Shown here piece after piece: positions 2,905-14,824 of a stretch of 20,000 bases of DNA (the stretch's first letter is position 1; the number at the start of each line of letters is the position of its first letter). The DNA lies in IMG/VR virus record IMGVR_UViG_3300029448_000016; one strand, given 5' to 3'. This stretch comes from an uncultured virus (IMG/VR IMGVR_UViG_3300029448_000016) (lineage: Duplodnaviria > Heunggongvirae > Uroviricota > Caudoviricetes). Made by a program: the position numbers and the translations under genes. Below the pieces are notes generated by a model, which was not told where the DNA came from, did not search any database, and saw only the letters and a list, made by a program, of their open reading frames with translations.

Positions 2905-3191
2905 TGTTTCCTCACTGTAACAAATGTAGCGTTCTTAGTTTGGTTGTTTACTTTCTGAGACAACCATTTGTCTATACCTATTTCATGTATGTAATCTACT
3001 GTGTCTGAGTAGACACCGTAAGTGAGACAGTGATGTGGTTTCGGAGCGTGTTCGAAATACTTCTCAGTTGCTCTAATCTTTTTGGCTTTAATTGTGGAAC
3101 CATCTACAGTAGAGGTTCTAGTCATCAACTGTTGTAGTTGACGTGGCGTTAATTGTTTTAGCGTTGCAGCTAATTGGTCGACTTTTGTCAT
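2901..3191 (-). CDS. hypothetical protein (true start MTKVDQ at 3191)
   Basis: TATA box at 3214-3221 lies 23 nt upstream of ATG 3191; the ORF-track extension to 3296 reads through the promoter. Confidence 0.7.
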   Translation of the reverse strand: MTKVDQLAATLKQLTPRQLQQLMTRTSTVDGSTIKAKKIRATEKYFEHAPKPHHCLTYGVYSDTVDYIHEIGIDKWLSQKVNNQTKNATFVTVRKQ

Positions 3192-3209
3192 CTTATTCAG
3201 ATAGTATAG

Positions 3210-3229
3210 AGGGTATATAAAGGTTTCCC
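3210..3229 (-). promoter_or_regulatory. archaeal BRE/TATA promoter GGGAAACCTTTATATACCCT
   Basis: Near-identical to 2421-2440; leaderless spacing to ATG 3191. Confidence 0.75.
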
Positions 3230-3379
3230 CTCTTGAACTGAGAGCCCAGCACGAAAAATGAACTGAGTATAAAAAACGGGGGGCTTTTTCATGCAAAACC
3301 TTATATAGTTCAGCTTCCCTATATTAACTATATTAAGATATAGATTAGTTATGCTATAGTATTGCTATAAGTAAAGAGA

Positions 3380-3456
3380 CTAATAGAGCATGCTTAGTTT
3401 AGCACTCTTATGTCTTAGTATAGCATGGTTAGTAGAGCATGTTTAGTAGAGCATTC
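3380..3456. repeat. five degenerate 14-bp tandem repeats (consensus TTAGTAGAGCATGN)
   Basis: ctaatagagcatgc 3380, ttagtttagcactc 3394, 7-bp gap, ttagtatagcatgg 3415, ttagtagagcatgt 3429, ttagtagagcattc 3443. Confidence 0.75.
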
Positions 3457-3766
3457 TTAATATAGGCTTCTTAATTACTTACTCTACTTTGTCGCATGAA
3501 CACATTTCATCGCGAACTAAGAACTTAAACTGGTTTTAGTTTGGGTTTTAAGCCCTACTAAGCACTTTTATTTTCTCATTGGGGCCTACGGTTGTGCTCA
3601 GTGGAGCCCTGAGCCCGACTGAGACAGTTTCTCACTGTGCTTTACGGACCTCCCCTGTTTCTTTATAGAGCCAACTGAGCAATGTTTTCTCACCTCGCCT
3701 TACCGAGCTTTCTCACGAAGGTTTAAAGCTCAACTGAGAGCCCACGAGCTGAGTAGAGCGAAGAAG

Positions 3767-3784
3767 TTTCACTCGAGTGGAAAA
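3767..3784. repeat. terminal copy of the cassette palindrome without TATA box (TTTCACTCGAGTGGAAAA)
   Basis: Matches the palindromic half of the 32-bp repeat; core CACTCGAGTG is a perfect palindrome. Confidence 0.75.
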
Positions 3785-3806
3785 ATAAAATTTATAAAAA
3801 ATAATA

Positions 3807-4025
3807 GGATGAGTAGGAGGATTTATTGTATACCTCCAAAGGGTTTATGCCACTACAAAGTAGAACCCTTACCAGCTTTGCATCCCTCCAGCAGTCGCTT
3901 CTCGGTTTGCGCAGTTCTGTGCCTTAGTCCGTGGCGGACTTGTTCGGCCATACTCGATTACGGAAGAGCTACTTCCATAAATATAAGGTGGGTAGTTGTT
4001 CGAGATACCCAGCTCGATTACTGAT
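3807..4025 (-). ncRNA. putative structured RNA / long structured 3' element (~220 nt)
   Basis: No convincing ORF. Stems GGATG/CATCC (3807/3881) enclose GGAGG/CCTCC and AAGGGTT/AACCCTT; further stems AGTCCG/CGGACT, GGAAG/CTTCC, TGGGTA/TACCCA. Followed by a T-rich tract on the minus strand. Confidence 0.45.
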
Positions 4026-4028
4026 TGC

Positions 4029-4361
4029 CTATTTAATTAGACCTGCCTTTTTCATAGCTTTCTTCAAATCAGCTTCTGACATCTTACCTGATGCAAGAGC
4101 AGCAACAACAGAGTCCACTGAAGGAGCTTTGCCAGTTACTTTTCTTTGTGATTGAAGTTCATGTGTGCGTGATGCAACCATAGATGCAGTTTTATCATTT
4201 GCAGATATTACATCGCAAATGGCAACGAGTGCATCATACTTTACACCAGTAGGATATCTTTCGGAAGTTCCTACTTTTTCTATTCCTAGTGAGTCCAATA
4301 AAGAACTCACGAGCTTTTCATCCTTTGGTGCCCAAAGGTAATCCATCTTGGCCTTAGTCAT
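4029..4361 (-). CDS. hypothetical early protein, leaderless
   Basis: 110-aa ORF; TATA 4382-4389 and TGGT element upstream of ATG. Confidence 0.8.
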   Translation of the reverse strand: MTKAKMDYLWAPKDEKLVSSLLDSLGIEKVGTSERYPTGVKYDALVAICDVISANDKTASMVASRTHELQSQRKVTGKAPSVDSVVAALASGKMSEADLKKAMKKAGLIK

Positions 4362-4390
4362 AATATACCATCCGCTAGTGCTATTTAAGC

Positions 4391-4627
4391 TTATCCCCTG
4401 CTGATGACTTGACGAAGTTCGTATTGCTCAAAGACGTCTGGATTAGATAATCTCACAGAGTCTGCAATTTCTTGATGGCTTCCTCGGCTACCAGTGCCAA
4501 CCGGAATCATTTCTTTATACATTCCATACTTACCGTATGGGGTAGTGCCCACTTCTACGAAGAAGTCGACTTCTTTCTCACTGCGACCCTTCCATGGAAG
4601 AGACGTCTTGGTCTGAATTCTGTTCAT
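4391..4627 (-). CDS. hypothetical early protein, leaderless
   Basis: 78-aa ORF directly downstream of the repeat-linked promoter. Confidence 0.8.
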   Translation of the reverse strand: MNRIQTKTSLPWKGRSEKEVDFFVEVGTTPYGKYGMYKEMIPVGTGSRGSHQEIADSVRLSNPDVFEQYELRQVISRG

Positions 4628-4647
4628 GTATAACCAAGGGAGGGGGT

Positions 4648-4680
4648 CTATATAAAGGTTTTTTCACACGAGTGGAAAAA
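4648..4680 (-). promoter_or_regulatory. 32-bp repeat: palindrome + BRE/TATA promoter
   Basis: plus strand CTATATAAAGGTTTTTTCACACGAGTGGAAAA; TATA 22 nt from ATG 4627. Confidence 0.85.
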
Positions 4681-5096
4681 GATGCAACTTCACCCAAGGC
4701 TCTAATTAGAATTTAAAGCCTACCTTGGGGAGCGGTTGCCTGAGGGCGCGACAATCTTCATAGGTAGCGCCACACGTGGGGTGACCTGTCGCCAGTCAAA
4801 AGCCGAAGCTTCACGAAAGGCGAACACAAACAGAACAGGTGTGATGCAGCATAGCGAATACGAGAAGACATATAACAGGGACAAAGTGATTCAAAGGTGA
4901 TACATAATGTTAGCTACACGTCTTTAATCAACTAAGATGGCCATAGACCGGCAAGGGATTGGTCAGCACTGTTCAGCTAATGTTTGTTATTTTGTCTTTC
5001 GTATTTGGCGTATGGTCGATTTTGTTTCTTTGTCAGGTCACGGTGTTACAGCTGATAACTGTAAGTGAGCGGGGGTAATTTGGGCTCCCCGCTCTG
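4681..5096 (-). ncRNA. putative ~415-nt structured non-coding RNA
   Basis: Own promoter (TATA 5117-5124 + TTGGTTATAC) followed by AGAGCGGGG instead of ATG; two 5' hairpins, long-range nested helices, 3' hairpin, then a T tract. Confidence 0.7.
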
Positions 5097-5128
5097 TATA
5101 ACCAATAGGGTATGCCTATTTAAGCTTT
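5097..5128 (-). promoter_or_regulatory. TATA promoter with no downstream start codon
   Basis: AAAGCTTAAATAGGCATACCCTATTGGTTATAC; last 10 nt identical to the promoter upstream of ATG 4627. The stop codon of ORF 5120..5389 lies inside the TATA box. Confidence 0.75.
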
Positions 5129-5389
5129 GCCCCTTACAAAGTCAATTACTTCATTTGGGACTTTAGTTCCATATTTTTTAATCTCAGAGACATAGACATC
5201 ACCAAGTTCGAATTCTCCGTAAGTGAAATTACTTTTCACCGCACAGAACCAACGAGCGTGAGCGTTCTTTGCTTCGTTTTCTTCGTTTTGGTATTTCTTT
5301 AATACTCTCCATTCAAAGCCATTAGCTCCAGTCCAGACCTCGTATGGGTCGTCAGCACTACGGGATTTACCGCACATGTTTTTAGTCAT
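5120..5389 (-). CDS. hypothetical viral protein, leaderless
   Basis: 89-aa ORF (…ARWFCAVKS…GEFELGDVY…) downstream of the repeat-linked promoter. Confidence 0.8.
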   Translation of the reverse strand: MTKNMCGKSRSADDPYEVWTGANGFEWRVLKKYQNEENEAKNAHARWFCAVKSNFTYGEFELGDVYVSEIKKYGTKVPNEVIDFVRGKA

Positions 5390-5409
5390 ACAATACCAAG
5401 TGTGGGGGT

Positions 5410-5441
5410 CTATATAAAGGTTTTTTCACATGAGTGGAAAA
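5410..5441 (-). promoter_or_regulatory. 32-bp repeat: palindrome + BRE/TATA promoter
   Basis: CTATATAAAGGTTTTTTCACATGAGTGGAAAA; TATA 22 nt from ATG 5389. Confidence 0.85.
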
Positions 5442-5444
5442 GGC

Positions 5445-5466
5445 GGGGGAGAGGCTCTACTCCCCC
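5445..5466 (-). terminator. GC hairpin before T tract
   Basis: GGGGGA-N10-TCCCCC; on the minus strand followed by GCCTTTT of the next repeat. Confidence 0.45.
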
Positions 5467-5491
5467 TGAGGTGTCCGAAAACTTGCGAAAA

Positions 5492-5566
5492 CTATTTGCT
5501 AGCCTTTTTGATAATCTTATTTGTTTTCTTTTTCCAACTGCGTTCCAATGGTTTATCGTAGCTCAT
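5492..5566 (-). CDS. 24-aa basic peptide
   Basis: MSYDKPLERSWKKKTNKIIKKASK; ATGA overlap with the upstream ORF. Confidence 0.5.
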   Translation of the reverse strand: MSYDKPLERSWKKKTNKIIKKASK

Positions 5567-5679
5567 TGGTGACACCCGCAGCAAGGTGCGTCTTCACACC
5601 CGCAGAGAACAATGTAGTCCCCTGCTTCACTTATACCAGAGATGACCATGTCATCTAAAATATCCAAGATGCTCTTCAT
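5563..5679 (-). CDS. 38-aa Cys-rich microprotein (CGCEDAPCCGCH)
   Basis: MKSILDILDDMVISGISEAGDYIVLCGCEDAPCCGCHQ; ATGA-coupled at both ends. Confidence 0.7.
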   Translation of the reverse strand: MKSILDILDDMVISGISEAGDYIVLCGCEDAPCCGCHQ

Positions 5680-5876
5680 TCCCACACCCTCACGTTATTG
5701 TGGTGGTCTGTCAAGGGAATGTTAGCTGGGTCTTCCTTGCGTGGGTCGTCTGTTAGTCCCATGTCAATTGCTTTTAGCTGGTCTAGTAAACCAGAGTCAA
5801 CTAAGTTTTTGGTTTGGGTTCTTCGGGCGGCTTTGCGGAAACGGAAGTCGTTTCTCATGTCCTGTATTTTACTCAT
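5676..5876 (-). CDS. hypothetical early protein, leaderless
   Basis: 66 aa; TATA 5897-5904 + TGGTATAAT upstream of ATG. Confidence 0.75.
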   Translation of the reverse strand: MSKIQDMRNDFRFRKAARRTQTKNLVDSGLLDQLKAIDMGLTDDPRKEDPANIPLTDHHNNVRVWE

Positions 5877-5912
5877 ATTATACCATTGAGTGTCCCTATA
5901 TAAGGGTTTCTC

Positions 5913-6023
5913 TCAGTCCCCCGTCCAGAAGGTCGCAAACATTTCTGTATCGCAATCCTCACACAGTCCACCGAATAATTCGATATCTTCCAAGCCACAG
6001 TCCTGACACGTTTGATTAGTCAT
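5913..6023 (-). CDS. 36-aa acidic zinc-finger microprotein, leaderless
   Basis: MTNQTCQDCGLEDIELFGGLCEDCDTEMFATFWTGD; TATA 22 nt upstream. Confidence 0.8.
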   Translation of the reverse strand: MTNQTCQDCGLEDIELFGGLCEDCDTEMFATFWTGD

Positions 6024-6043
6024 ACAATACCAAGAACACTACC

Positions 6044-6075
6044 CTATATAAAGGTTTTTTCACTTGAGTGGAAAA
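6044..6075 (-). promoter_or_regulatory. 32-bp repeat: palindrome + BRE/TATA promoter
   Basis: CTATATAAAGGTTTTTTCACTTGAGTGGAAAA. Confidence 0.85.
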
Positions 6076-6325
6076 GCTGGCGCCCCTCCTAAGAGGGGGT
6101 AACCTGCGCCCAGCTGTCCTACCTCAATGGGCTGGCTCACTGGGCTGAAGATGCGTCGCTACGTTTAACGCTCGGGCGGACTTATGCCGTAGGCCCTTCG
6201 CCATCTCTTGTCAGGCGTCTTCTCTTGTCTTTACCAGTTTATTAGACTGTTGTCCTCTCACCGCTTCCAAACGGGGCGCCTACTCCTTGGGCCACCTATT
6301 TACAGAGAGCAAAGACTCATGGAAC
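6075..6325 (-). ncRNA. putative GC-rich structured RNA / long structured 3' element (~250 nt)
   Basis: ORF-free in the track and more GC-rich than its neighbours. Nested stems GGCCC/GGGCC (6192/6289), AGGCG/CGCCT (6213/6277), CAGT/ACTG; terminal AGCTGG/CCAGCT encloses CCCCTC/GAGGGG. Confidence 0.5.
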
Positions 6326-6484
6326 TTAACCCCAGTATCCCGACGCTACACAGAACTTGTGCGTGTTGAATCTTGGGTTGTGTTTTACCATTTCACCAGA
6401 CATAGCGAGTATTAGGTCCTCGCTTGCGTCATTGTCTTTTAGTATTTTTGCGATTGCTTCAAAGTGTTTTCTTGTCATAGTCAT
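6326..6484 (-). CDS. 52-aa viral protein (MTRKHFEAIA…NPRF type), leaderless
   Basis: MTMTRKHFEAIAKILKDNDASEDLILAMSGEMVKHNPRFNTHKFCVASGYWG; TATA 6505-6512. Pattern resembles a small hypothetical phage protein family (from memory). Confidence 0.8.
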   Translation of the reverse strand: MTMTRKHFEAIAKILKDNDASEDLILAMSGEMVKHNPRFNTHKFCVASGYWG

Positions 6485-6514
6485 AATATACCATAGAGTG
6501 TGCCTATATAAGGT

Positions 6515-6661
6515 TTACGCTCTTCTCCTCCAGCGCAACATTCTCAGCAACATGCCCTGAGTTTTTATAGGTTGTTTATAAAATTCCTCAAATGTTTGTT
6601 TGCCGCCTAATTCGACGTAGTCGTGCCAGTTGTGGATTGTTTGTATTTCGTATTTGTCCAT
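6515..6661 (-). CDS. 48-aa hypothetical protein (start MDKYEI at 6661), leaderless
   Basis: TATA 6682-6689 lies 21 nt upstream; the track extension to 6700 reads through the promoter. Confidence 0.75.
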   Translation of the reverse strand: MDKYEIQTIHNWHDYVELGGKQTFEEFYKQPIKTQGMLLRMLRWRRRA

Positions 6662-6680
6662 ATTATACCAACGGGTGTGC

Positions 6681-6712
6681 CTATATAAAGGTTTTTTCAC
6701 ACGAGTGGAAAA
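6681..6712 (-). promoter_or_regulatory. 32-bp repeat: palindrome + BRE/TATA promoter
   Basis: CTATATAAAGGTTTTTTCACACGAGTGGAAAA, identical to the 4648 copy. Confidence 0.85.
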
Positions 6713-6715
6713 GTC

Positions 6716-6880
6716 CTACTTGAGCTGGCTTCTTTTGAAACCAGCCCACACGTGACCCTTATCCCAAATGTATTTACTACCACCTGTAGCAGGGTCATAG
6801 ACTAACCAATAGTTATTACCTCTGGCGTCTGTTCCTTTATTGATTATTTTATATCCGTCTTTGGTGTTTCTTTTTCTCAT
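6716..6880 (-). CDS. 54-aa basic hypothetical protein, leaderless
   Basis: MRKRNTKDGYKIINKGTDARGNNYWLVYDPATGGSKYIWDKGHVWAGFKRSQLK; TATA 6902-6909 + TGGT element. Confidence 0.75.
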   Translation of the reverse strand: MRKRNTKDGYKIINKGTDARGNNYWLVYDPATGGSKYIWDKGHVWAGFKRSQLK

Positions 6881-6909
6881 GAATTACCAATAGGGAATCC
6901 CTATATAAA

Positions 6910-6972
6910 GCTTTCTCACCTAAGCGCTTTCTCACCTAGGCTGCTTTCTCACCCCACGCGGGTTTCTCACCC
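6910..6972. repeat. four direct repeats of TTTCTCACC upstream of a TATA box
   Basis: Copies start at 6912, 6928, 6945, 6963 (spacing 16, 17, 18 bp). Confidence 0.8.
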
Positions 6973-7012
6973 ACGCAGGTTAAAATCCCTCGTTTTGAGG
7001 GCCATTAGGCAT

Positions 7013-7144
7013 TTATCTAAGTCTGATAAGACTATTTCTTAATGCTTTTGCATATGTTGATTTTGGTAAATTGATTTTACAATCTTCGTTTTGAAGTTTA
7101 TATTTCAATGCACTAATCACGGCTATTGATGTTTTGTTATCCAT
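7013..7144 (-). CDS. 43-aa hypothetical protein
   Basis: MDNKTSIAVISALKYKLQNEDCKINLPKSTYAKALRNSLIRLR; GGAGGT SD upstream. Confidence 0.65.
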   Translation of the reverse strand: MDNKTSIAVISALKYKLQNEDCKINLPKSTYAKALRNSLIRLR

Positions 7145-7213
7145 TTTAGTTACCTCCATGTTTGGGTTTGGGCTGAGAGAGCCGGAGCTCTCCCATACCC
7201 CCTAACACGGCCT

Positions 7214-7354
7214 TTATTGTTGGTCGTGTATTTGGTCTATGATGTTATGTAATATGTCTAACATATAACCATAAGTTATCACATCATTGTGTCCATATCG
7301 ATTCTTATTCATTTGGTCGATATCATACTTATTTAATTCTATTTCGAATTTCAC
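7214..7354 (-). CDS. 46-aa hypothetical protein (GTG start)
   Basis: MKFEIELNKYDIDQMNKNRYGHNDVITYGYMLDILHNIIDQIHDQQ; GGAGGTGA SD upstream; abuts the previous stop. Confidence 0.65.
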   Translation of the reverse strand: MKFEIELNKYDIDQMNKNRYGHNDVITYGYMLDILHNIIDQIHDQQ

Positions 7355-7597
7355 TTATTCACCTCCTTTTGTATTGATTCCTTCGTTTTTACCTGTCTCG
7401 AATTCTTTAACGATTGTTTGTAATCGCTCGATTACATGACGGCCGTATTTATTCAAATCATGACCCTTCATGCCGGCAGTATCTGAGAGATACATTAGTT
7501 GCCCCATTAAATGGTGTAATGCGTTGGATTCATGATAGTTCGACCTATTCATGTCAGTTGTTGCGTATGCCCTTTTCATATATGTTTTTACGTTCAT
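7355..7597 (-). CDS. hypothetical protein
   Basis: 80-aa ORF in the minus-strand gene run. Confidence 0.7.
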   Translation of the reverse strand: MNVKTYMKRAYATTDMNRSNYHESNALHHLMGQLMYLSDTAGMKGHDLNKYGRHVIERLQTIVKEFETGKNEGINTKGGE

Positions 7598-7666
7598 ATT
7601 TTTTTTCCTATATCAGTATTTGATATTTAGTGCCCTAGCTCCGGAGAGCTAAGGTCACCTATCAGT

Positions 7667-8002
7667 TTACTTATTACCCCCGTAAGTATAACCTTTGTTA
7701 CCTATACCGGCCATGCCTTGAAACTTTGGTTCTTTACCGTATTTCTTGACATGGTCCCAAACTAAGTTTGCTTCATGTGCTAAGCCCTCAAAAACATTAT
7801 CAAATTCAGCCATAACAATTAGGCTGATATCTTGACCCTTTTTAGGTCGGTGCTTAGATAGACGGCTTTGAGGGTCTGAGGTGATACCGTAATACACAGC
7901 TTCCTTAGTTGCCTCGCTACCGAAATCAGCATCTAGAAAATGATAGGATGTCTTTTCTTGCTGTTGGGCTAATCGATACACAAAATACTTTTGATTATTC
8001 AT
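7667..8002 (-). CDS. stand-alone GIY-YIG nuclease-like protein
   Basis: YFVYRL…VYYGITSDPQSRLSKH…LAHE: GIY/YIG-like strands, conserved Arg/His and downstream Glu. Confidence 0.7.
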   Translation of the reverse strand: MNNQKYFVYRLAQQQEKTSYHFLDADFGSEATKEAVYYGITSDPQSRLSKHRPKKGQDISLIVMAEFDNVFEGLAHEANLVWDHVKKYGKEPKFQGMAGIGNKGYTYGGNK

Positions 8003-8180
8003 TGAACTCCATGTAACAATCGAAACACATTTCTACGTTATGGCTCTCATGTGTAGCCTCAACTTTATCAGTGAACAACTCAAAACAAGGCTCACAAAAT
8101 ATCTCTATATCACTATTAGGTAGTGACTCCTCAAATCCTATTTGGATTAACTCGCTATCGGACAAATGGTTTTTTACCAT
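7995..8180 (-). CDS. 61-aa acidic zinc-finger protein, leaderless
   Basis: CEPC…H…CFDC; CTTTATAAG at 8201-8209 lies about 22 nt upstream. Confidence 0.7.
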   Translation of the reverse strand: MVKNHLSDSELIQIGFEESLPNSDIEIFCEPCFELFTDKVEATHESHNVEMCFDCYMEFNE

Positions 8181-8547
8181 ATACTCAGAATAGCAACCTA
8201 CTTATAAAGATTTTAGGTCAATCCGTGCTTAGCGTTTCACTTCCTAGCTACAAAATAGATACCGTTTTATGTTTATTTTTTCTCAGTTTCTCATTAAGTA
8301 TATTCTCAGTTTGTCAGCATGTGCCCCCGTCTAAAAAGAAAGGCCGCATCCTCTATTATCGTCGACTACCCCTAAAAACAAATCGAGTGAAATTTTGAAA
8401 GTCATTATATAGCTCTATATAGGTATAGTAGATAAGCTACTACTAACAACAATAATGAGCTCTATAAAGCACTCCTCAGTTCAGGGACAGAAAGCCTTAT
8501 ATACTGTCAAAGGTTAAAATTATTACCAAAAGGAGAAACTAACTTCA

Positions 8548-9207: not shown

Positions 9208-10212
9208 ATGAAGAAGACAATTTTAATAACCGGAGTAGCAGGATTGCTAGGCTCCCGATTAGCTGATTGGCTGATAGAGAATACAGAGCACGATGTAATA
9301 GGCGTTGATGACCTTAGTGGTGGATACTTAGAAAACGTTAACCACTTCGTTGACTTCTATAGCTTTGATTTAAAAGAATTAAAGTACGTGGATAATATGT
9401 TTGAAGAGAATAAGATAGATATTGTTTATCACATGGCTGCTTACGCAGCAGAAGGCCTTAGTCCGTTTATGAGGAAACATAACTATGAGAATAACTTGAT
9501 AGCATCTACTAATCTAATTACAAATAGTATTAAACATAATGTAGAACGCTTTGTGTTTACTTCTTCGATGGCTGTGTATGGAGATAAACATACTCCACCA
9601 TTCCACGAAGATTTACTACCCTCCCCGATTGACCCTTATGGTATAGCTAAACTCGCTGTAGAACAAGACTTAGAAGTAGCTCGCCGTCAACACGGCCTAA
9701 ATTATACAGTGGTTCGGCCACATAACTTTTATGGACGAAACCAAAATATCTGGGACAGATATAGGAACGTACTAGGGATATGGATGTATCAGATTATGAA
9801 TAACATACCTCCTACAATATTTGGTGATGGTAAGCAAAAGAGAGCGTTTAGTTATATAGATGATGCTCTTGAACCACTTTGGAAAGCATCACAATCAGAT
9901 GAGTGTATAGGAGAAACAATCAACCTAGGTGGTGTCAAAGAATACACTATCAATGAAGCTTGTAATATTTTATTAGAGGTAACAGGAACAGATTTAAAAC
10001 CAGTACACCTAGAACCACGGCATGAAACTAAATATGCGTGGTCTACATGGGACAAGTCAGTAGAACTATTAGATTTCAAACACAATATAGATTTAGAAGA
10101 AGGTTTAACTAAGATGTGGGAATGGGCACAGAATGCACCAGAACATAAAAGAAAAGAATGGAAGAACTTTGAATTAGATAAAGACATATATAACTTCTGG
10201 GAGAAACAATGA
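9208..10212 (+). CDS. NAD-dependent NDP-sugar epimerase/dehydratase (extended SDR, GalE-like)
   Basis: ITGVAGLLG, DDLSGG, FTSSMAVYG, YGIAK, IFGDGKQKRAFSYIDD. Confidence 0.92.
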   Translation: MKKTILITGVAGLLGSRLADWLIENTEHDVIGVDDLSGGYLENVNHFVDFYSFDLKELKYVDNMFEENKIDIVYHMAAYAAEGLSPFMRKHNYENNLIASTNLITNSIKHNVERFVFTSSMAVYGDKHTPPFHEDLLPSPIDPYGIAKLAVEQDLEVARRQHGLNYTVVRPHNFYGRNQNIWDRYRNVLGIWMYQIMNNIPPTIFGDGKQKRAFSYIDDALEPLWKASQSDECIGETINLGGVKEYTINEACNILLEVTGTDLKPVHLEPRHETKYAWSTWDKSVELLDFKHNIDLEEGLTKMWEWAQNAPEHKRKEWKNFELDKDIYNFWEKQ

Positions 10213-10760
10213 AAGTACCACCTAGTACCGTAGACCACAACCCTACAGATGGTAATACACCATTTCTTTGGACACACCCTCGTAATCACGAGTTTATTAG
10301 TCTTATACCTAGAAGCCCATACTTCATTAAGATAGCTACAATAATACGTAGTACTCCAGACCACGAATGGACAATAGACCAATGTGTAGAGAATGCACAT
10401 TCTATATCAGAACAAGTAATAGTACTAGATGACACACCACATAACGAAGGTATAAAACATATCGAAAAAGATATAAAGTGGGTATTGTTCTTAGATGGAG
10501 ATGAAGTTATAGACACAGAACTGTTTGGTAACTTTTTAAATGACCCAGAGACTTACAACTACGCTATGTATCAATTCGCTAGTGTAGGTTCTGTTTTGAT
10601 AAGAAAAGAATTTGCTAACATGAATACCTCTATATCATCAATAGATGATTGTAGATATCAATTACATTTGTGTAGGTATTGTTCTAACTTCCAATCAAAG
10701 AGTGGACACCTCTATGAAGTGCAATACAACGATGAACCAATGATAAGGAGAATAAAATGA
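10209..10760 (+). CDS. short/divergent glycosyltransferase family 2-like protein
   Basis: VIVLDD and WVLFLDGDE (DxD) motifs; only 183 aa. Confidence 0.55.
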   Translation: MKVPPSTVDHNPTDGNTPFLWTHPRNHEFISLIPRSPYFIKIATIIRSTPDHEWTIDQCVENAHSISEQVIVLDDTPHNEGIKHIEKDIKWVLFLDGDEVIDTELFGNFLNDPETYNYAMYQFASVGSVLIRKEFANMNTSISSIDDCRYQLHLCRYCSNFQSKSGHLYEVQYNDEPMIRRIK

Positions 10761-11650
10761 AAGAAGACCCAGCAATAGAACATGAGAATGTACACACCTA
10801 TTATGATAATAAAAGGAGTGCAGAGAATAAAATACCTGTATTAGGAACTTTAGTAGTACGACAACCTAAATGGGTAAGACAACAAATAGAAAGCGTAGAC
10901 TTTCCAGTAAAGAACTATATTATATTTAATAATAATGGTAAAGGAGAAATAACAGAAGAGCTAGATAAATTAGTTACCGAACACCAAGATAATAAATTTA
11001 TAGATAATCTTCAAGTATGTCACCTTCCATGCAACATAGGTATAGCAGGTGGATGGAACCTAATAATCAAATCATTTATGATGGAACCATATTGGTTGAT
11101 TGCTAATGATGATGTTTCTTTTGGTAGTGGATTCCTCGCAGAGATGTGCGATAAAGCTAAAGACCAAGAAGTTGGAATGATTCATGGGTTTGAAGGTGAC
11201 TTTACAGGAATAGGTAGTTGGAATGTATTTTTATTAAAGGACTGGGTAGTACAACAAATAGGATTGTTTGATGAAAACTTTTACCCAGCTTATTGTGAAG
11301 ATAGTGATTATATAATGCGTATCTTTTTGAGAGAACGTAACATAGGTGGTTCCCCTATAAAACGTATCATGTCTTTAGATAGCACCTACTACCATGGTGG
11401 TGGTGATTCTAAACAAGACAAAGATGAATACTACGAATATGGTATGCAGACTAGTCAAGGAGATGATGAGATTAGAAGAAAGTTAGAATTCTCTAATGTT
11501 ATAAATTTCGAATACATGGAACAGAAATGGGGGCCATGGTGGAGAACTTGTTGGCCATGGGGTAATGGTCCATTTGACAATAAAGATTTACCTTTGTCCC
11601 ACACAACATACGATTTACAATTTGTAAGAAAAAAGAATACGGGGTTTTAA
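10757..11650 (+). CDS. glycosyltransferase family 2-like protein
   Basis: NIGIAGGWN, WLIANDDV, IGLFDENFYPAYCEDSDY. Confidence 0.8.
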   Translation: MKEDPAIEHENVHTYYDNKRSAENKIPVLGTLVVRQPKWVRQQIESVDFPVKNYIIFNNNGKGEITEELDKLVTEHQDNKFIDNLQVCHLPCNIGIAGGWNLIIKSFMMEPYWLIANDDVSFGSGFLAEMCDKAKDQEVGMIHGFEGDFTGIGSWNVFLLKDWVVQQIGLFDENFYPAYCEDSDYIMRIFLRERNIGGSPIKRIMSLDSTYYHGGGDSKQDKDEYYEYGMQTSQGDDEIRRKLEFSNVINFEYMEQKWGPWWRTCWPWGNGPFDNKDLPLSHTTYDLQFVRKKNTGF

Positions 11651-11651
11651 G

Positions 11652-12695
11652 ATGACAATAAAAATGCAAGATTTATGTACAACATCAATAGTTAAAGACG
11701 CAGGTAAAGAAGGAGCACTCACAGCACTCATTATAGATGCTGAACTTACAAATGGTTTAGGATTAATGAATCCTACAATATTAAAAGATAATAACGATTG
11801 GATAACTAATGTAAGAAGTGTATCTTATACATTACATCATTGTGACCCACCTAATCCAGAAGGTAGCGAACAAGATGGTAGATTTCAAACACCATGGGGT
11901 CCATTGAACTATGTTCGCCCAGATGACGACCCATATCTTAGAACAGATAATTATATAGGATATCTTAATGAAGGCAAAGGAATAGAAGGATATCACAAAA
12001 TAGATACTACTAGGTTTCCTAAAATGCCTGATTGGGATTTTATAGGACATGAAGATGGTAGATTAATGAAATGGGATGGTCAACTATGGTTTGCAGGAGT
12101 AAGGAGACATGCCCCAGATGGTAAAGGTAGAATGCAAATGTCTAACATTCAACTAACACCCACAGGAGCATATGAGTTAGAAAGACACATAATAGAAGTA
12201 GAAGACAAACAATCTTATTGTGAAAAGAACTGGATGCCTATTCTTGATATGCCATATCATTTTGTTAAGTGGATGAATCCTTTAGAGATAGTAAAAGTAG
12301 ACCTTCTTGAAAATAAAGCTACTCAAACAAAATTAGGAGATACATTACCTTTTGATAATTTAGACTTAAGAGGTGGTTCACAAGTAGTACCCTATAAAGA
12401 TTATAGAATAGCTATTACGCATGAAGTAGATGGGTGGGTATCTGAAAGAGGCGACCGCGAAGGTCATTACAACCACAGACTTGTAATATGGGATAAAGAT
12501 TGGAATATAGTCTCAGTATCTAAACCATGGAAATTTATGCATGGTAAAATAGAATTTTGTTGTGGATTAGCAATAGAAGGTGACACCCTACATATAACAT
12601 TTGGATATCAAGATAACTCAGCTTATTTATTTAGAGTACCTTTTGATTTTATGAACAACTTACCTAAGGAGGAAGCTTATGAAAGAAGTAATTAG
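11652..12695 (+). CDS. five-bladed beta-propeller glycoside hydrolase/phosphorylase-like (GH130-like) protein
   Basis: NPTI, EDGRL, EKNWMP, LRGGS, IEFCCGL, TFGYQD motifs. Confidence 0.7.
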   Translation: MTIKMQDLCTTSIVKDAGKEGALTALIIDAELTNGLGLMNPTILKDNNDWITNVRSVSYTLHHCDPPNPEGSEQDGRFQTPWGPLNYVRPDDDPYLRTDNYIGYLNEGKGIEGYHKIDTTRFPKMPDWDFIGHEDGRLMKWDGQLWFAGVRRHAPDGKGRMQMSNIQLTPTGAYELERHIIEVEDKQSYCEKNWMPILDMPYHFVKWMNPLEIVKVDLLENKATQTKLGDTLPFDNLDLRGGSQVVPYKDYRIAITHEVDGWVSERGDREGHYNHRLVIWDKDWNIVSVSKPWKFMHGKIEFCCGLAIEGDTLHITFGYQDNSAYLFRVPFDFMNNLPKEEAYERSN

Positions 12696-13392
12696 ACCTA
12701 CATACGCAGAACTAGAACAACAAGTCAAAGAACTACAAACAGAGTTAGATTCGAGACCTGAAATAACATTTCATCCTGTTGCTCACTTTACTAATCTTTA
12801 TCCTTATATCAATAACCCTACACCACAGAATATGTTTGCTTTAGGTTTAGAATATGAAAAGATGGGACAAACAGCATCTGCCATAGGATATTATCATCAA
12901 TGTGCTGAAAGAGCTGTTGATAATAATTTATTAACCTACGAAGCTTTGATAAGGATGTCTTTATGTTATGAAAAGCAAGGTGGTAGAAAAGCACACGAAA
13001 AATTAGCATTACAACATGCGATAGGAGTTATACCAAATAGACCTGAAGCATATTACTTCTTAAGTAGTTTGTATGAAAGACAAGGTGCAGAAGATAATCA
13101 TGAGAGATGGTTTGATTCATATGGGGTAGCTTGTATGGGTGAAAGCCATGAGTTTAATCTAGCAACTAAGATTCCAGATTTACAACCATTACAAACCGAC
13201 ACAGGTTATTATGGAGTACACGGTTGTACATTCCAAAAAGCCGTAGCACTGTGGTGGATAGGAAGAGGTGACGATGCTCGTAAGTTATTTGCAGAACTAG
13301 ATAAAAGGAATGACTTTCCTAGTAACATAAGAGAACTCATTACTAGCAATATAAAAATGTTAAAATCAAACGAAGGGAGACAACCAGAATGA
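12679..13392 (+). CDS. TPR-repeat protein
   Basis: FALGLEYEKMGQTASAIGYY, PNRPEAYYFLS helical repeats. Confidence 0.75.
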   Translation: MKEVIRPTYAELEQQVKELQTELDSRPEITFHPVAHFTNLYPYINNPTPQNMFALGLEYEKMGQTASAIGYYHQCAERAVDNNLLTYEALIRMSLCYEKQGGRKAHEKLALQHAIGVIPNRPEAYYFLSSLYERQGAEDNHERWFDSYGVACMGESHEFNLATKIPDLQPLQTDTGYYGVHGCTFQKAVALWWIGRGDDARKLFAELDKRNDFPSNIRELITSNIKMLKSNEGRQPE

Positions 13393-14036
13393 AACTAATA
13401 GATAACAAATTCTATATACCAGATAATATGGAACAATACTTAGGTGACAACAACGCGTTACCTGAAGAGTTAGTTATTGAATGGTGTAAAAATAATATTA
13501 AGGACACAGAAAAATTTATAGATATAGGAGCTCATGTAGGAACATACGCATGGTCAGTTGCTCCATATTGTAAGGAAGTTATTGCTTTTGAGCCAACACG
13601 TCATAATTACAACATGATGTGTGCAAATATAGCATTAGCAAATTTATCACACAAAATACAAACACACAACATAGGTTTATCTTCTGAAGATACATACCTA
13701 ACTTTTCACGAAAGAGATAGTGATGGTGGTACAAACGGATTTGATACACCATACTTAGGAGAAGGAAACACACAGAGATTACAAGTAAAACAGTTAGATA
13801 GTTTTATAATAGAAGATATAGGACTAATCAAAATAGATGTAGAAGGGCATGAGCTAGAAGTATTGAAAGGAGCTATAAGAACTTTACAAATGAATGGTTT
13901 TCCACCAATATTATTTGAATGTTGGGATATACCAGAATTAAAAGAACCACTATGGAATTATTTAAATTCTATGGGTTATAGTATTTCTAATGCATCATCA
14001 GAAGAAATGTATATAGCATACAAGGAGAATAAATGA
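13389..14036 (+). CDS. FkbM-family SAM-dependent methyltransferase
   Basis: FIDIGAHVG, IAFEP, LIKIDVEGHELEVLKGA, ILFE. Confidence 0.92.
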   Translation: MKLIDNKFYIPDNMEQYLGDNNALPEELVIEWCKNNIKDTEKFIDIGAHVGTYAWSVAPYCKEVIAFEPTRHNYNMMCANIALANLSHKIQTHNIGLSSEDTYLTFHERDSDGGTNGFDTPYLGEGNTQRLQVKQLDSFIIEDIGLIKIDVEGHELEVLKGAIRTLQMNGFPPILFECWDIPELKEPLWNYLNSMGYSISNASSEEMYIAYKENK

Positions 14037-14824
14037 ACGACGAATTTTATAAGAAAGAATACGACTCTGAGGGTTGTAAGTTGCCTAGACAAATTATGGC
14101 AGCAGAAACTAGAACGCCATCTATTGTGGTTGTAGACCATTTTTACAATGACCCTGATGAAGTAAGAAACTGGGCAATAGGAGAAGGTCATTTCCAAGAA
14201 CCCGGCAGTCATGGTGCTGTAGGATATAGATGTGAACAAGAACGTAAATTTTTTAGTAATGCTAAAGAATGTATAGAAAATGTTATGAATGGTAAAGTAA
14301 TAGAAGGAAGCGAAGAAGGAGGTTGGGAATATCCTACTAACGGATGTTTTCAATGGTGTCCAGCTGGTACACCTGTTGCATACCACAGTGATAGCCAACA
14401 GTATGCAGGTGTTTTATTTTTAACACCAGACGCACCACATGACACAGGAACTTCACTCTATAAGCACAAAGACACAGGTATAGACTATTTACCACAAACA
14501 GAAGAAGAATGTCAGAAATACTTTGGTTGCTCATGGCAAGAATTACACAATGCTGTATTTGGTAAGTATCACGGTAAACTAGGAACACCAGACCCTAATC
14601 CACCTAACAACCCAGATATGTTATTGAGAACATACGAATCTAATTACTTAGATGGTACTCAGTTCGAAGAAACTGATAGAGTAGCTAATATATACAATAG
14701 ACTAGTAATCTTTGATGCTAGAAAAATACATTCAGCTACAGCGTACTTTGGAGATAATATACACAACAGTAGATTATTTCAATTATTCTTTTTTAATTTA
14801 GAAAAAGAGGAGGACAAGTTATGA
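14033..14824 (+). CDS. 2OG-Fe(II) oxygenase (DUF6445-like)
   Basis: VVDHFYNDPDEVR, HSD, GVLFLTP, GTSLY, YNRLVIFDARKIHSA, RLFQLFF. Confidence 0.85.
   Translation: MNDEFYKKEYDSEGCKLPRQIMAAETRTPSIVVVDHFYNDPDEVRNWAIGEGHFQEPGSHGAVGYRCEQERKFFSNAKECIENVMNGKVIEGSEEGGWEYPTNGCFQWCPAGTPVAYHSDSQQYAGVLFLTPDAPHDTGTSLYKHKDTGIDYLPQTEEECQKYFGCSWQELHNAVFGKYHGKLGTPDPNPPNNPDMLLRTYESNYLDGTQFEETDRVANIYNRLVIFDARKIHSATAYFGDNIHNSRLFQLFFFNLEKEEDKL

Follow-up and report, generated by a model that had tools for sequence, protein, structure and literature searches.

What does a virus make from a promoter that leads to no start codon? The window, our name for the whole 20,000-nt stretch of DNA analysed here, comes from an uncultured tailed virus (IMG/VR record IMGVR_UViG_3300029448_000016), and a sequence-only reading of it had described nine promoters of the TATA...TGGT type, eight of them leading to an ATG. 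We recovered all nine, with TATA elements at 6908, 6688, 6511, 6051, 5903, 5417, 5123, 4655 and 4388; eight reach an ATG 27–29 nt on, and the promoter at 5123 leads to ACAGAGCGGGG instead. We conclude that uncultured marine tailed viruses, probably infecting archaea, carry here a stand-alone gene for a structured and unclassified non-coding RNA (ncRNA), and that this gene is a new ncRNA class. Our main reading, that the RNA oligomerises and also has a protein-binding role, carries a probability of roughly 0.55 when both parts are taken together.

A promoter-driven RNA gene

The promoter occupies 5098..5128 on the minus strand, with TATA at 5116-5123, TGGT at 5101-5104 and a predicted RNA start at 5095-5097. 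Such a layout, combined with leaderless starts, is archaeal in type, and the leaderless-promoter array that holds the RNA gene is probably early. Of 62 homologues, 56 have a TATA element upstream of the RNA, and the remaining six come without upstream DNA. Downstream of the promoter, the 422 nt from 4675 to 5096 fold with an energy of −120.9 kcal/mol (z = −3.9, with 0 of 100 shuffles as good), in agreement with the earlier description of a highly structured RNA, and every pairing proposed in that description exists on the minus strand. The fold z-score is −3.3 for the minus strand and −1.2 for the plus strand, while the inner rod by itself (4815-5030) is not significant against shuffles (z = −0.44). 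The use of G·U pairs and of UUCG and GAAA loops suggests a single-stranded RNA of the minus strand. From these features and from the homologues described below, the minus-strand element is almost certainly a functional RNA.

Searches with the Rfam 15 covariance models at E<=1 returned nothing on the element in the window or in six related loci, although the same runs detected manA and one tRNA, and the lack of a recognisable family thus stands. ARAGORN identified no tRNA or tmRNA, the T-loop motif of tRNA-like structures is found in 0/75 copies, and of 17 short matches to GenBank phages by blastn, all due to chance, none covers more than 9% of the query. No reading frame is kept among the homologues: a 54-aa open reading frame at 4720-4884, considered as a coding candidate, is open in just 13/62 of them, and core lengths fall into all three mod-3 classes. 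An antisense role towards the virus's own genes was also rejected, G002 (a related viral record) holding only three 13-nt matches. The element is not an untranslated region, and a cis-regulatory leader is disfavoured: in L006-L009 the orientation of the element towards the upstream gene is reversed, and the gene that follows is driven by a promoter of its own. It is single-copy wherever whole records were searched. The idea of a new, large, promoter-driven viral ncRNA is therefore borne out by covariation, the absence of an Rfam family, the lack of a kept frame and contigs in RNA libraries.

Homologues and the conserved core

Homologues were collected with flanking-protein scans (9 and 15 loci) and a motif scan (21 viral matches and at least 117 metagenome matches). 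Among the 117 metagenome matches listed, 71 are full copies, 7 are partial copies at contig ends and 39 are chance. The matches listed yield 62 distinct close cores, the window included, which are 227-266 nt long, 47-100% alike and equivalent to about 27 effective sequences at 90%; the invariance of GTCAC and of the CSTGA/TTTG motif in this set is built in, because the motif-scan pattern fixed them. A covariance model found the distant copies L020 and L006-L009 (the latter on the opposite strand), and the distant set comprises 13 distinct copies. Of 13 distant loci fetched with a 110-aa viral protein, 12 hold the RNA, and L309 was found through polB. A second model, run over 20 records, matched in 13 and in 7/10 records that are at least 90% complete. 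The three misses among these are G008, which ends inside the element (L018), and G005 and G014, which also lack the 110-aa gene and whose polB is 48% identical. An exact-pattern scan of GTDB genomes returned 10 matches, none with the fold or with a profile score above 13 bits, which excludes near-identical cellular copies only, and among 9 matches to the L020-type closing helix only L020's own contig qualified. The shortest copy, 207 nt long (L273:2482-2688), has its own promoter and keeps site A, the side hairpin and the apical palindromes that are described below.

The conserved unit consists of a core of about 260 nt and one 5′ module. The core (4781..5041, minus strand) is closed by a helix of 5034-5041 with 4781-4788 and contains a three-way junction, a long interrupted rod and an apical domain. 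In the curated structure 96.1% of 2959 cells are paired, as compared with 77.6% in shuffled and 27-44% in slid alignments, and 0/500 shuffles reach the observed value, in a test that relatedness inflates; 30/48 pairs show double changes in the 62-copy alignment. These helices thus covary, as had to be checked for the earlier proposal, and the same alignment redraws its inner part. An inner helix TTAGCT/AGCTAA is fully paired in 1/62 homologues and a GACC/GGTC pairing (4946-4964) is whole in just 32/62, while an alternative apical helix of 4945-4951 with 4914-4923 is whole in 60/62. This apical helix (4914..4951, minus strand) has 307/310 cells paired, shows C-G/A-U/U-A swaps and presents a loop of about 21 nt.

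Three elements of the core are candidates for recognition by a partner. The side hairpin (4789..4823, minus strand), stacked on the closing helix, combines a C(C/G)UGA / UUUG motif with a variable, stable loop and is a candidate protein-binding site; it covaries, its C-G, G·U and A-U pairs are kept in the distant set, and the exact motif is found in 11/13 distant copies. An unpaired UC(C/A)CU lies in the upper internal loop (4954..4958, minus strand; 62/62 close and 12/13 distant copies), and a second unpaired UCCCU lies in the lower internal loop (4877..4881, minus strand; 58/62 close and 9/13 distant copies). In box C/D RNAs and K-turns, box C (RUGAUGA) joins box D (CUGA) by way of tandem G·A pairs. 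We rejected this identity for the side hairpin, which has G·U and A-U pairs instead, with box C in 2/62 close and 0/13 distant copies. An AUCACC segment, which we take to resemble an anti-Shine-Dalgarno sequence, was likewise set aside, since by eye it pairs with a conserved 5′ UGA.

Around this core, the outer hairpins of the sequence-only reading do exist as pairings, yet the first 5′ hairpin and both 3′ hairpins prove optional among homologues. The first 5′ hairpin (5067..5094, minus strand) is exchangeable between lineages, with an extra 5′ hairpin of several unrelated sequences in 29/56 leaders. The 3′ hairpin A (4745..4771, minus strand) is variable, and the 3′ hairpin B (4684..4739, minus strand) is found in 54/62 copies with a conserved CCGCUCC/GGUGAAG internal loop; the 3′ hairpins are missing in 8/62 close copies. 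A pattern scan for the 3′ hairpin gave 57 matches, of which those that fold as a hairpin sit in element-bearing contigs and the others are chance-like. A linker of the form AC(C)UUA / ACCCUA recurs after stems before and after both ncRNAs of the array (5060-5066, 4773-4780 and 3981-3992, minus strand), in homologues too, and is possibly a processing or protein-binding signal. Distant viruses have another conserved 3′ module just 3′ of the core (L006:6330-6447; L269/L270/L272/L275/L276/L278), a three-way junction with GGGACGCCC and a CCCC-TTATATA-GGGG hairpin, which may represent a 3′ domain, an RNA of its own or a promoter on the opposite strand.

The T tract near 4680, previously taken as the transcript end, is not a private terminator, because it belongs to a repeat common to neighbouring promoters. 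The tract and its CCAC-N4-GTG dyad (4659..4680, minus strand) may act as terminator and/or operator. The full repeat, TTTTCCAC-N4-GTGAAA, is a candidate operator or terminator with five copies within 3000-8500 (3767-3785, 4662-4680, 5424-5442, 6058-6076 and 6695-6713), four of them directly before a promoter. The small-gene array is flanked at 3300-3800 and 6905-6990 by short AT-rich tandem-like repeats and (GC)TTTCTCAC repeats, a possible replication origin or genome-end region.

Loop segments that conserve symmetry

By comparison of the homologues, the RNA has two to four short self-complementary loop segments in which symmetry, not sequence, is selected. These loops are the most constrained feature of the element, were absent from the earlier description and point to RNA–RNA oligomerisation. 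All four sites, A to D, are found in 49/62 copies. Site A is universal, because it is found in all close and distant copies: 62/62 of the former, in 18 spellings, and 13/13 of the latter, including L309. It is a near-palindromic 5′ module (5045..5059, minus strand), a weak hairpin whose self-complementary loop CAGCTG (5049-5054) is predicted to form an intermolecular duplex; the calculated energies in close copies are −15 to −24 kcal/mol for the homodimer and −1.5 to −5.5 kcal/mol for the monomer. The site A loop of one close copy holds an octamer.

Site B, the palindromic octamer ATGGCCAT (4937..4944, minus strand), lies in the apical loop and is a Watson-Crick palindrome in 60/62 close copies, with 13 spellings; at a fixed site, an octamer would be palindromic by chance with a probability of 0.004. 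Of the two exceptions, one retains its symmetry via G·U; in the other, a deletion has left the same loop with a 14-nt palindrome. The top covarying pair of the whole alignment consists of 4941 and 4940 (MI-APC 1.31), which cannot pair within one strand because the bases are adjacent. In the numbering of the alignment, the neighbouring columns 110/111 and 125/126 covary as base pairs, and such pairs are possible only between molecules. On a tree computed from the other columns, the spelling of site B changes 19 times or more, a number that overcounts independent events because the tree is a mosaic. In distant copies, the segment matching site B has a self-complementary stretch of at least six nucleotides in 6/12 rows parsed (two mis-parsed), with 26% expected by chance, and site B is clade-limited.

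Sites C and D extend the pattern. Site C, the hexamer TGATTA (4925..4930, minus strand), shares the apical loop with site B and needs G·U to be self-complementary; self-complementarity holds in 52/62 copies, in 27 of these only with G·U, and all three pairs show double changes. Nine of the ten copies without it have the octamer ACGGCCGT, mostly extended to 14 nt. Site C could alternatively form a 3-bp intramolecular hairpin. Site D, the palindrome TCTAATTAGA (4701-4710, minus strand), lies in the loop of the 3′ hairpin B, and a palindrome of 4-10 nt is found on the 3′ side of that loop in 54/54 copies with the hairpin; the evidence is weaker here because the palindrome is often just 4 nt, and a random 10-11-nt loop holds one about 40% of the time. 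A control column scan found no variable-palindrome column in manA (32 sequences) or in three neighbouring genes (55, 46 and 52 sequences). Taken together, the loop segments very probably pair intermolecularly to form a dimer or a higher oligomer, to judge by their covariation and predicted energies.

Could the symmetry instead act in the DNA, through restriction-site decoys, replication or recombination signals, or template-switch products, with transcription being incidental? Many spellings do contain 4-6 bp dyads, and the region is a recombination mosaic. However, 27/52 site C hexamers are symmetric only with G·U, one DNA-binding protein cannot read 13 different sequences, and the long-range helices covary. 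The adjoining CCAC-N4-GTG dyad, moreover, lacks a kept symmetric centre, its N4 being palindromic in only 15/134 contexts across related loci. We consider a role in the DNA extremely unlikely and return to intermolecular pairing of the RNA.

Presence in RNA libraries

Among the sequencing runs listed, 20 hold part of this stretch and 12 of them are on record as RNA. We examined four RNA runs from four studies (X1, X12, X9 and X6), leaving out shares below 0.2 in other runs. In X1, a marine metatranscriptome, window-identical contigs cover 4745-4912 and 4893-5059 at depths of 125-132, and variant contigs reach 266. X12 and X9 contain related pieces at depths of 5-7, and X6 touches the 5′ edge only. 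The X1 contigs span 4745-5059, and the flanking genes, manA and the outer hairpins are without window-identical cover, in contigs that cannot show ends or absence. Because the runs were chosen for holding this stretch, the contigs indicate presence in RNA libraries, and not strand, ends or level.

The virus, its host and the linked genes

Relatives in IMG/VR are tailed viruses of 58-81 kb, with one contig that matches at 98.5% identity across 2.65 kb. Among the products of G002 are polB, a primase, the major head and tape measure proteins, a VWA protein (weak CobT_C), a GT4 glycosyltransferase and a match to class II-type ribonucleotide reductase. This set resembles the Krittikaviridae (magrovirus group E), for which the available part of PMC11706807 describes polB, primase, tail, CobT-VWA, GT4 and chaperonin genes, chaperonin apart; the chaperonin reported for Velanvirus is absent in 4/4 records searched, two being the same contig. 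Based on this resemblance and on promoters that are archaeal in type, the host is most likely a member of the Poseidoniales archaea. Elsewhere in the window, a plus-strand cluster at 9208-14824 (nucleotide-sugar epimerase, glycosyltransferase-like, TPR, FkbM methyltransferase and DUF6445 genes) is probably for glycan modification.

The gene array also contains a second ncRNA, manA (RF01745; 3806..3980, minus strand; 62.1 bits against a gathering score of 55.2), about 700 nt downstream of the RNA and co-occurring with it in related loci. In the window, which is probably from an archaeal virus, manA is not in a 5′ UTR, and about 500 nt of repeats follow it. In 32 aligned viral copies of manA, two 3′ loops covary by eye (TTG/CAA, ATG/CAT, CTG/CAG, AGG/CCT), matching the L8-L9′ kissing contact of manA cages in the accessible text of bioRxiv 10.64898/2026.07.01.735769. 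One distant virus has a tRNA gene between manA and the RNA region (L006:5117-5189).

The gene for the 110-aa protein (4029..4361, minus strand) keeps its linkage to the RNA across both close and distant viruses. Its product has the conserved motifs MDYLxAP and RxPxGVKYD and a helical model (pLDDT 78), and it gave no family or fold match with Atlas, Foldseek or VIA-align (best Z 4.3); the neighbouring genes have no Pfam or PHROG family match. The RNA might therefore be the partner of this protein, either within a ribonucleoprotein of the virus or as the antitoxin-like half of a pair that resembles type III toxin–antitoxin systems, in which tandem pseudoknot repeats precede the gene of a toxin RNase. 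The RNA lies within 1 kb of the gene in 12/13 distant loci, a count biased by fetching loci with that protein; L309, found via polB, has the RNA and the gene adjacent; the two invert together in L006-L009; and four records without the RNA are also without the gene. In contrast, G021 (a fragment, 52% complete) has the gene and no RNA match, the protein resembles no known family or fold, and there are no tandem antitoxin repeats: among the 20 largest repeat families listed, none forms tandem units inside the element. The linkage may also just reflect a shared module, and we consider such a partnership quite unlikely.

A proposed mechanism

We propose that the viral ncRNA is made, probably early, from its own leaderless-type promoter and adopts a rod fold with a three-way junction and a side hairpin. 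Identical molecules would join through their self-complementary segments, into either a two-fold dimer held together at the 5′ end, at the tip and often at the 3′ end, or a higher oligomer. The assembly would display the C(C/G)UGA/UUUG hairpin and the single-stranded UCCCU motifs in several copies and may thereby engage a host RNA-binding protein or a defence factor, as its multivalent decoy or scaffold, while the virus takes over the host. This last step is the weakest and is inferred: given a functional RNA that oligomerises, we put a decoy or scaffold role at slightly under even odds, and the decoy idea, first raised in the sequence-only reading, is plausible.

Alternatively, the assembly may consist of RNA only and need no specific protein target, in the form of a filament, cage or condensate by which, perhaps jointly with manA, the infected cell is organised or viral molecules are shielded. 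Four sites in 49/62 copies, located at opposite ends of the rod, would suit such a structure. Moreover, engineered four-armed RNAs with palindromic kissing loops condense, as stated in the available part of PMC11567899, and manA, which co-occurs here, forms 8-, 10- and 60-mers (the accessible part of bioRxiv 10.64898/2026.07.01.735769). Yet a single C2 dimer could close all sites, the 3′ hairpins are missing in 8/62 copies, and the sequence-conserved unpaired motifs suggest a partner. An RNA-only assembly is thus unlikely. In the boldest form of this idea, which we likewise regard as unlikely, the RNA would be a natural multivalent building block, rigid and equipped with three or four self-complementary loops, that polymerises into a filament, cage or condensate inside infected archaea, as a counterpart of engineered kissing-loop nanostars; it would adjoin the self-assembling manA, and lineage-specific spellings would keep the assemblies of co-infecting viruses apart.

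The natural variation itself points to the intermolecular contacts, including pairs between adjacent positions. Therefore, a 260-400-nt transcript and swaps of natural palindromes allow an immediate test of the quaternary structure. Large ncRNA classes known from viruses are few, and we found none described from marine archaeal viruses; the present one is relevant to the question why oligomers are formed by phage RNAs such as GOLLD, ROOL and manA. For RNA nanotechnology it provides a ready set of lineage-specific sticky ends, and in metatranscriptomes it can mark the active infection of uncultured Poseidoniales.

Comparison with known systems

No description of this RNA was found in the literature, with most subscription papers outside the search; the accessible part of PMC10160649 contains nothing relevant to the RNA and no mention of tRNA. 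The candidates of Fremin et al. are at most 151 nt long, according to the available text of PMC10690425, and a fragment of the RNA may already be among them.

The signal recognition particle (SRP) RNA and 6S RNA share with the element a long bulged rod of 200-300 nt. Helix 8 of SRP RNA is marked by a CAGG/AGCA loop and a GNRA tetraloop. A monomeric mimic of a host RNA, either SRP-like or a 6S-like polymerase sponge as suggested in the sequence-only reading, would fit the size, the rod shape with internal bubbles and the position among small genes of the host-takeover type. However, no SRP or 6S model matches at E<=1, the helix-8 motif is found in 0/62 close and 0/13 distant copies, and the side hairpin is on the 3′ side here. 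Nothing links the RNA to RNA polymerase, the virus seems to rely on host-type promoters, and the palindromes would be left unexplained. We therefore regard this mimicry as unsupported and very unlikely, and compare the element with RNAs that oligomerise.

The palindromic-loop hairpin of the HIV-1 dimerisation initiation site (DIS) can form a kissing complex and an extended duplex, and its spelling differs between lineages. The element studied here does not serve as a signal for genome packaging but is an ncRNA in its own right, encoded by a dsDNA virus and with up to four sites. ARRPOF is a 255-nt homodimer, similar in size to the RNA, and the HYER1/5 ribozymes dimerise via palindromic pairing, as may be the case here (both from the accessible portion of PMC12990946). 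In contrast to these, the element has no Rfam match to ARRPOF or group II introns and sits in a viral gene array, not in a plasmid replication region or intron. The marine viral ncRNA manA self-assembles as well (available parts of PMC2864571 and bioRxiv 10.64898/2026.07.01.735769), yet it is unrelated in sequence and fold, uses the heterotypic kissing loops L5-L7′ and L8-L9′ in the latter source, and has no variable palindrome column in 32 sequences.

The closest likeness in kind is to GOLLD, ROOL and OLE, large structured ncRNAs that form homo-oligomers (cages, dimers) with covarying intermolecular pairs, GOLLD and ROOL coming from phages and prophages, as far as the accessible text of PMC12286853 describes them. 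The RNA resembles them as a large structured ncRNA with covarying pairs that would fit intermolecular contact. It gives no match to their family models, and its core of 227-266 nt is without an ornate multi-junction fold of at least 500 nt: it is a 230-420-nt rod with few junctions, whereas theirs are ornate folds of 580-830 nt in that same text. Its contacts are predicted self-complementary duplexes and its promoter is archaeal in type; among self-assembling viral RNAs, it is apparently the first from an archaeal virus lineage.
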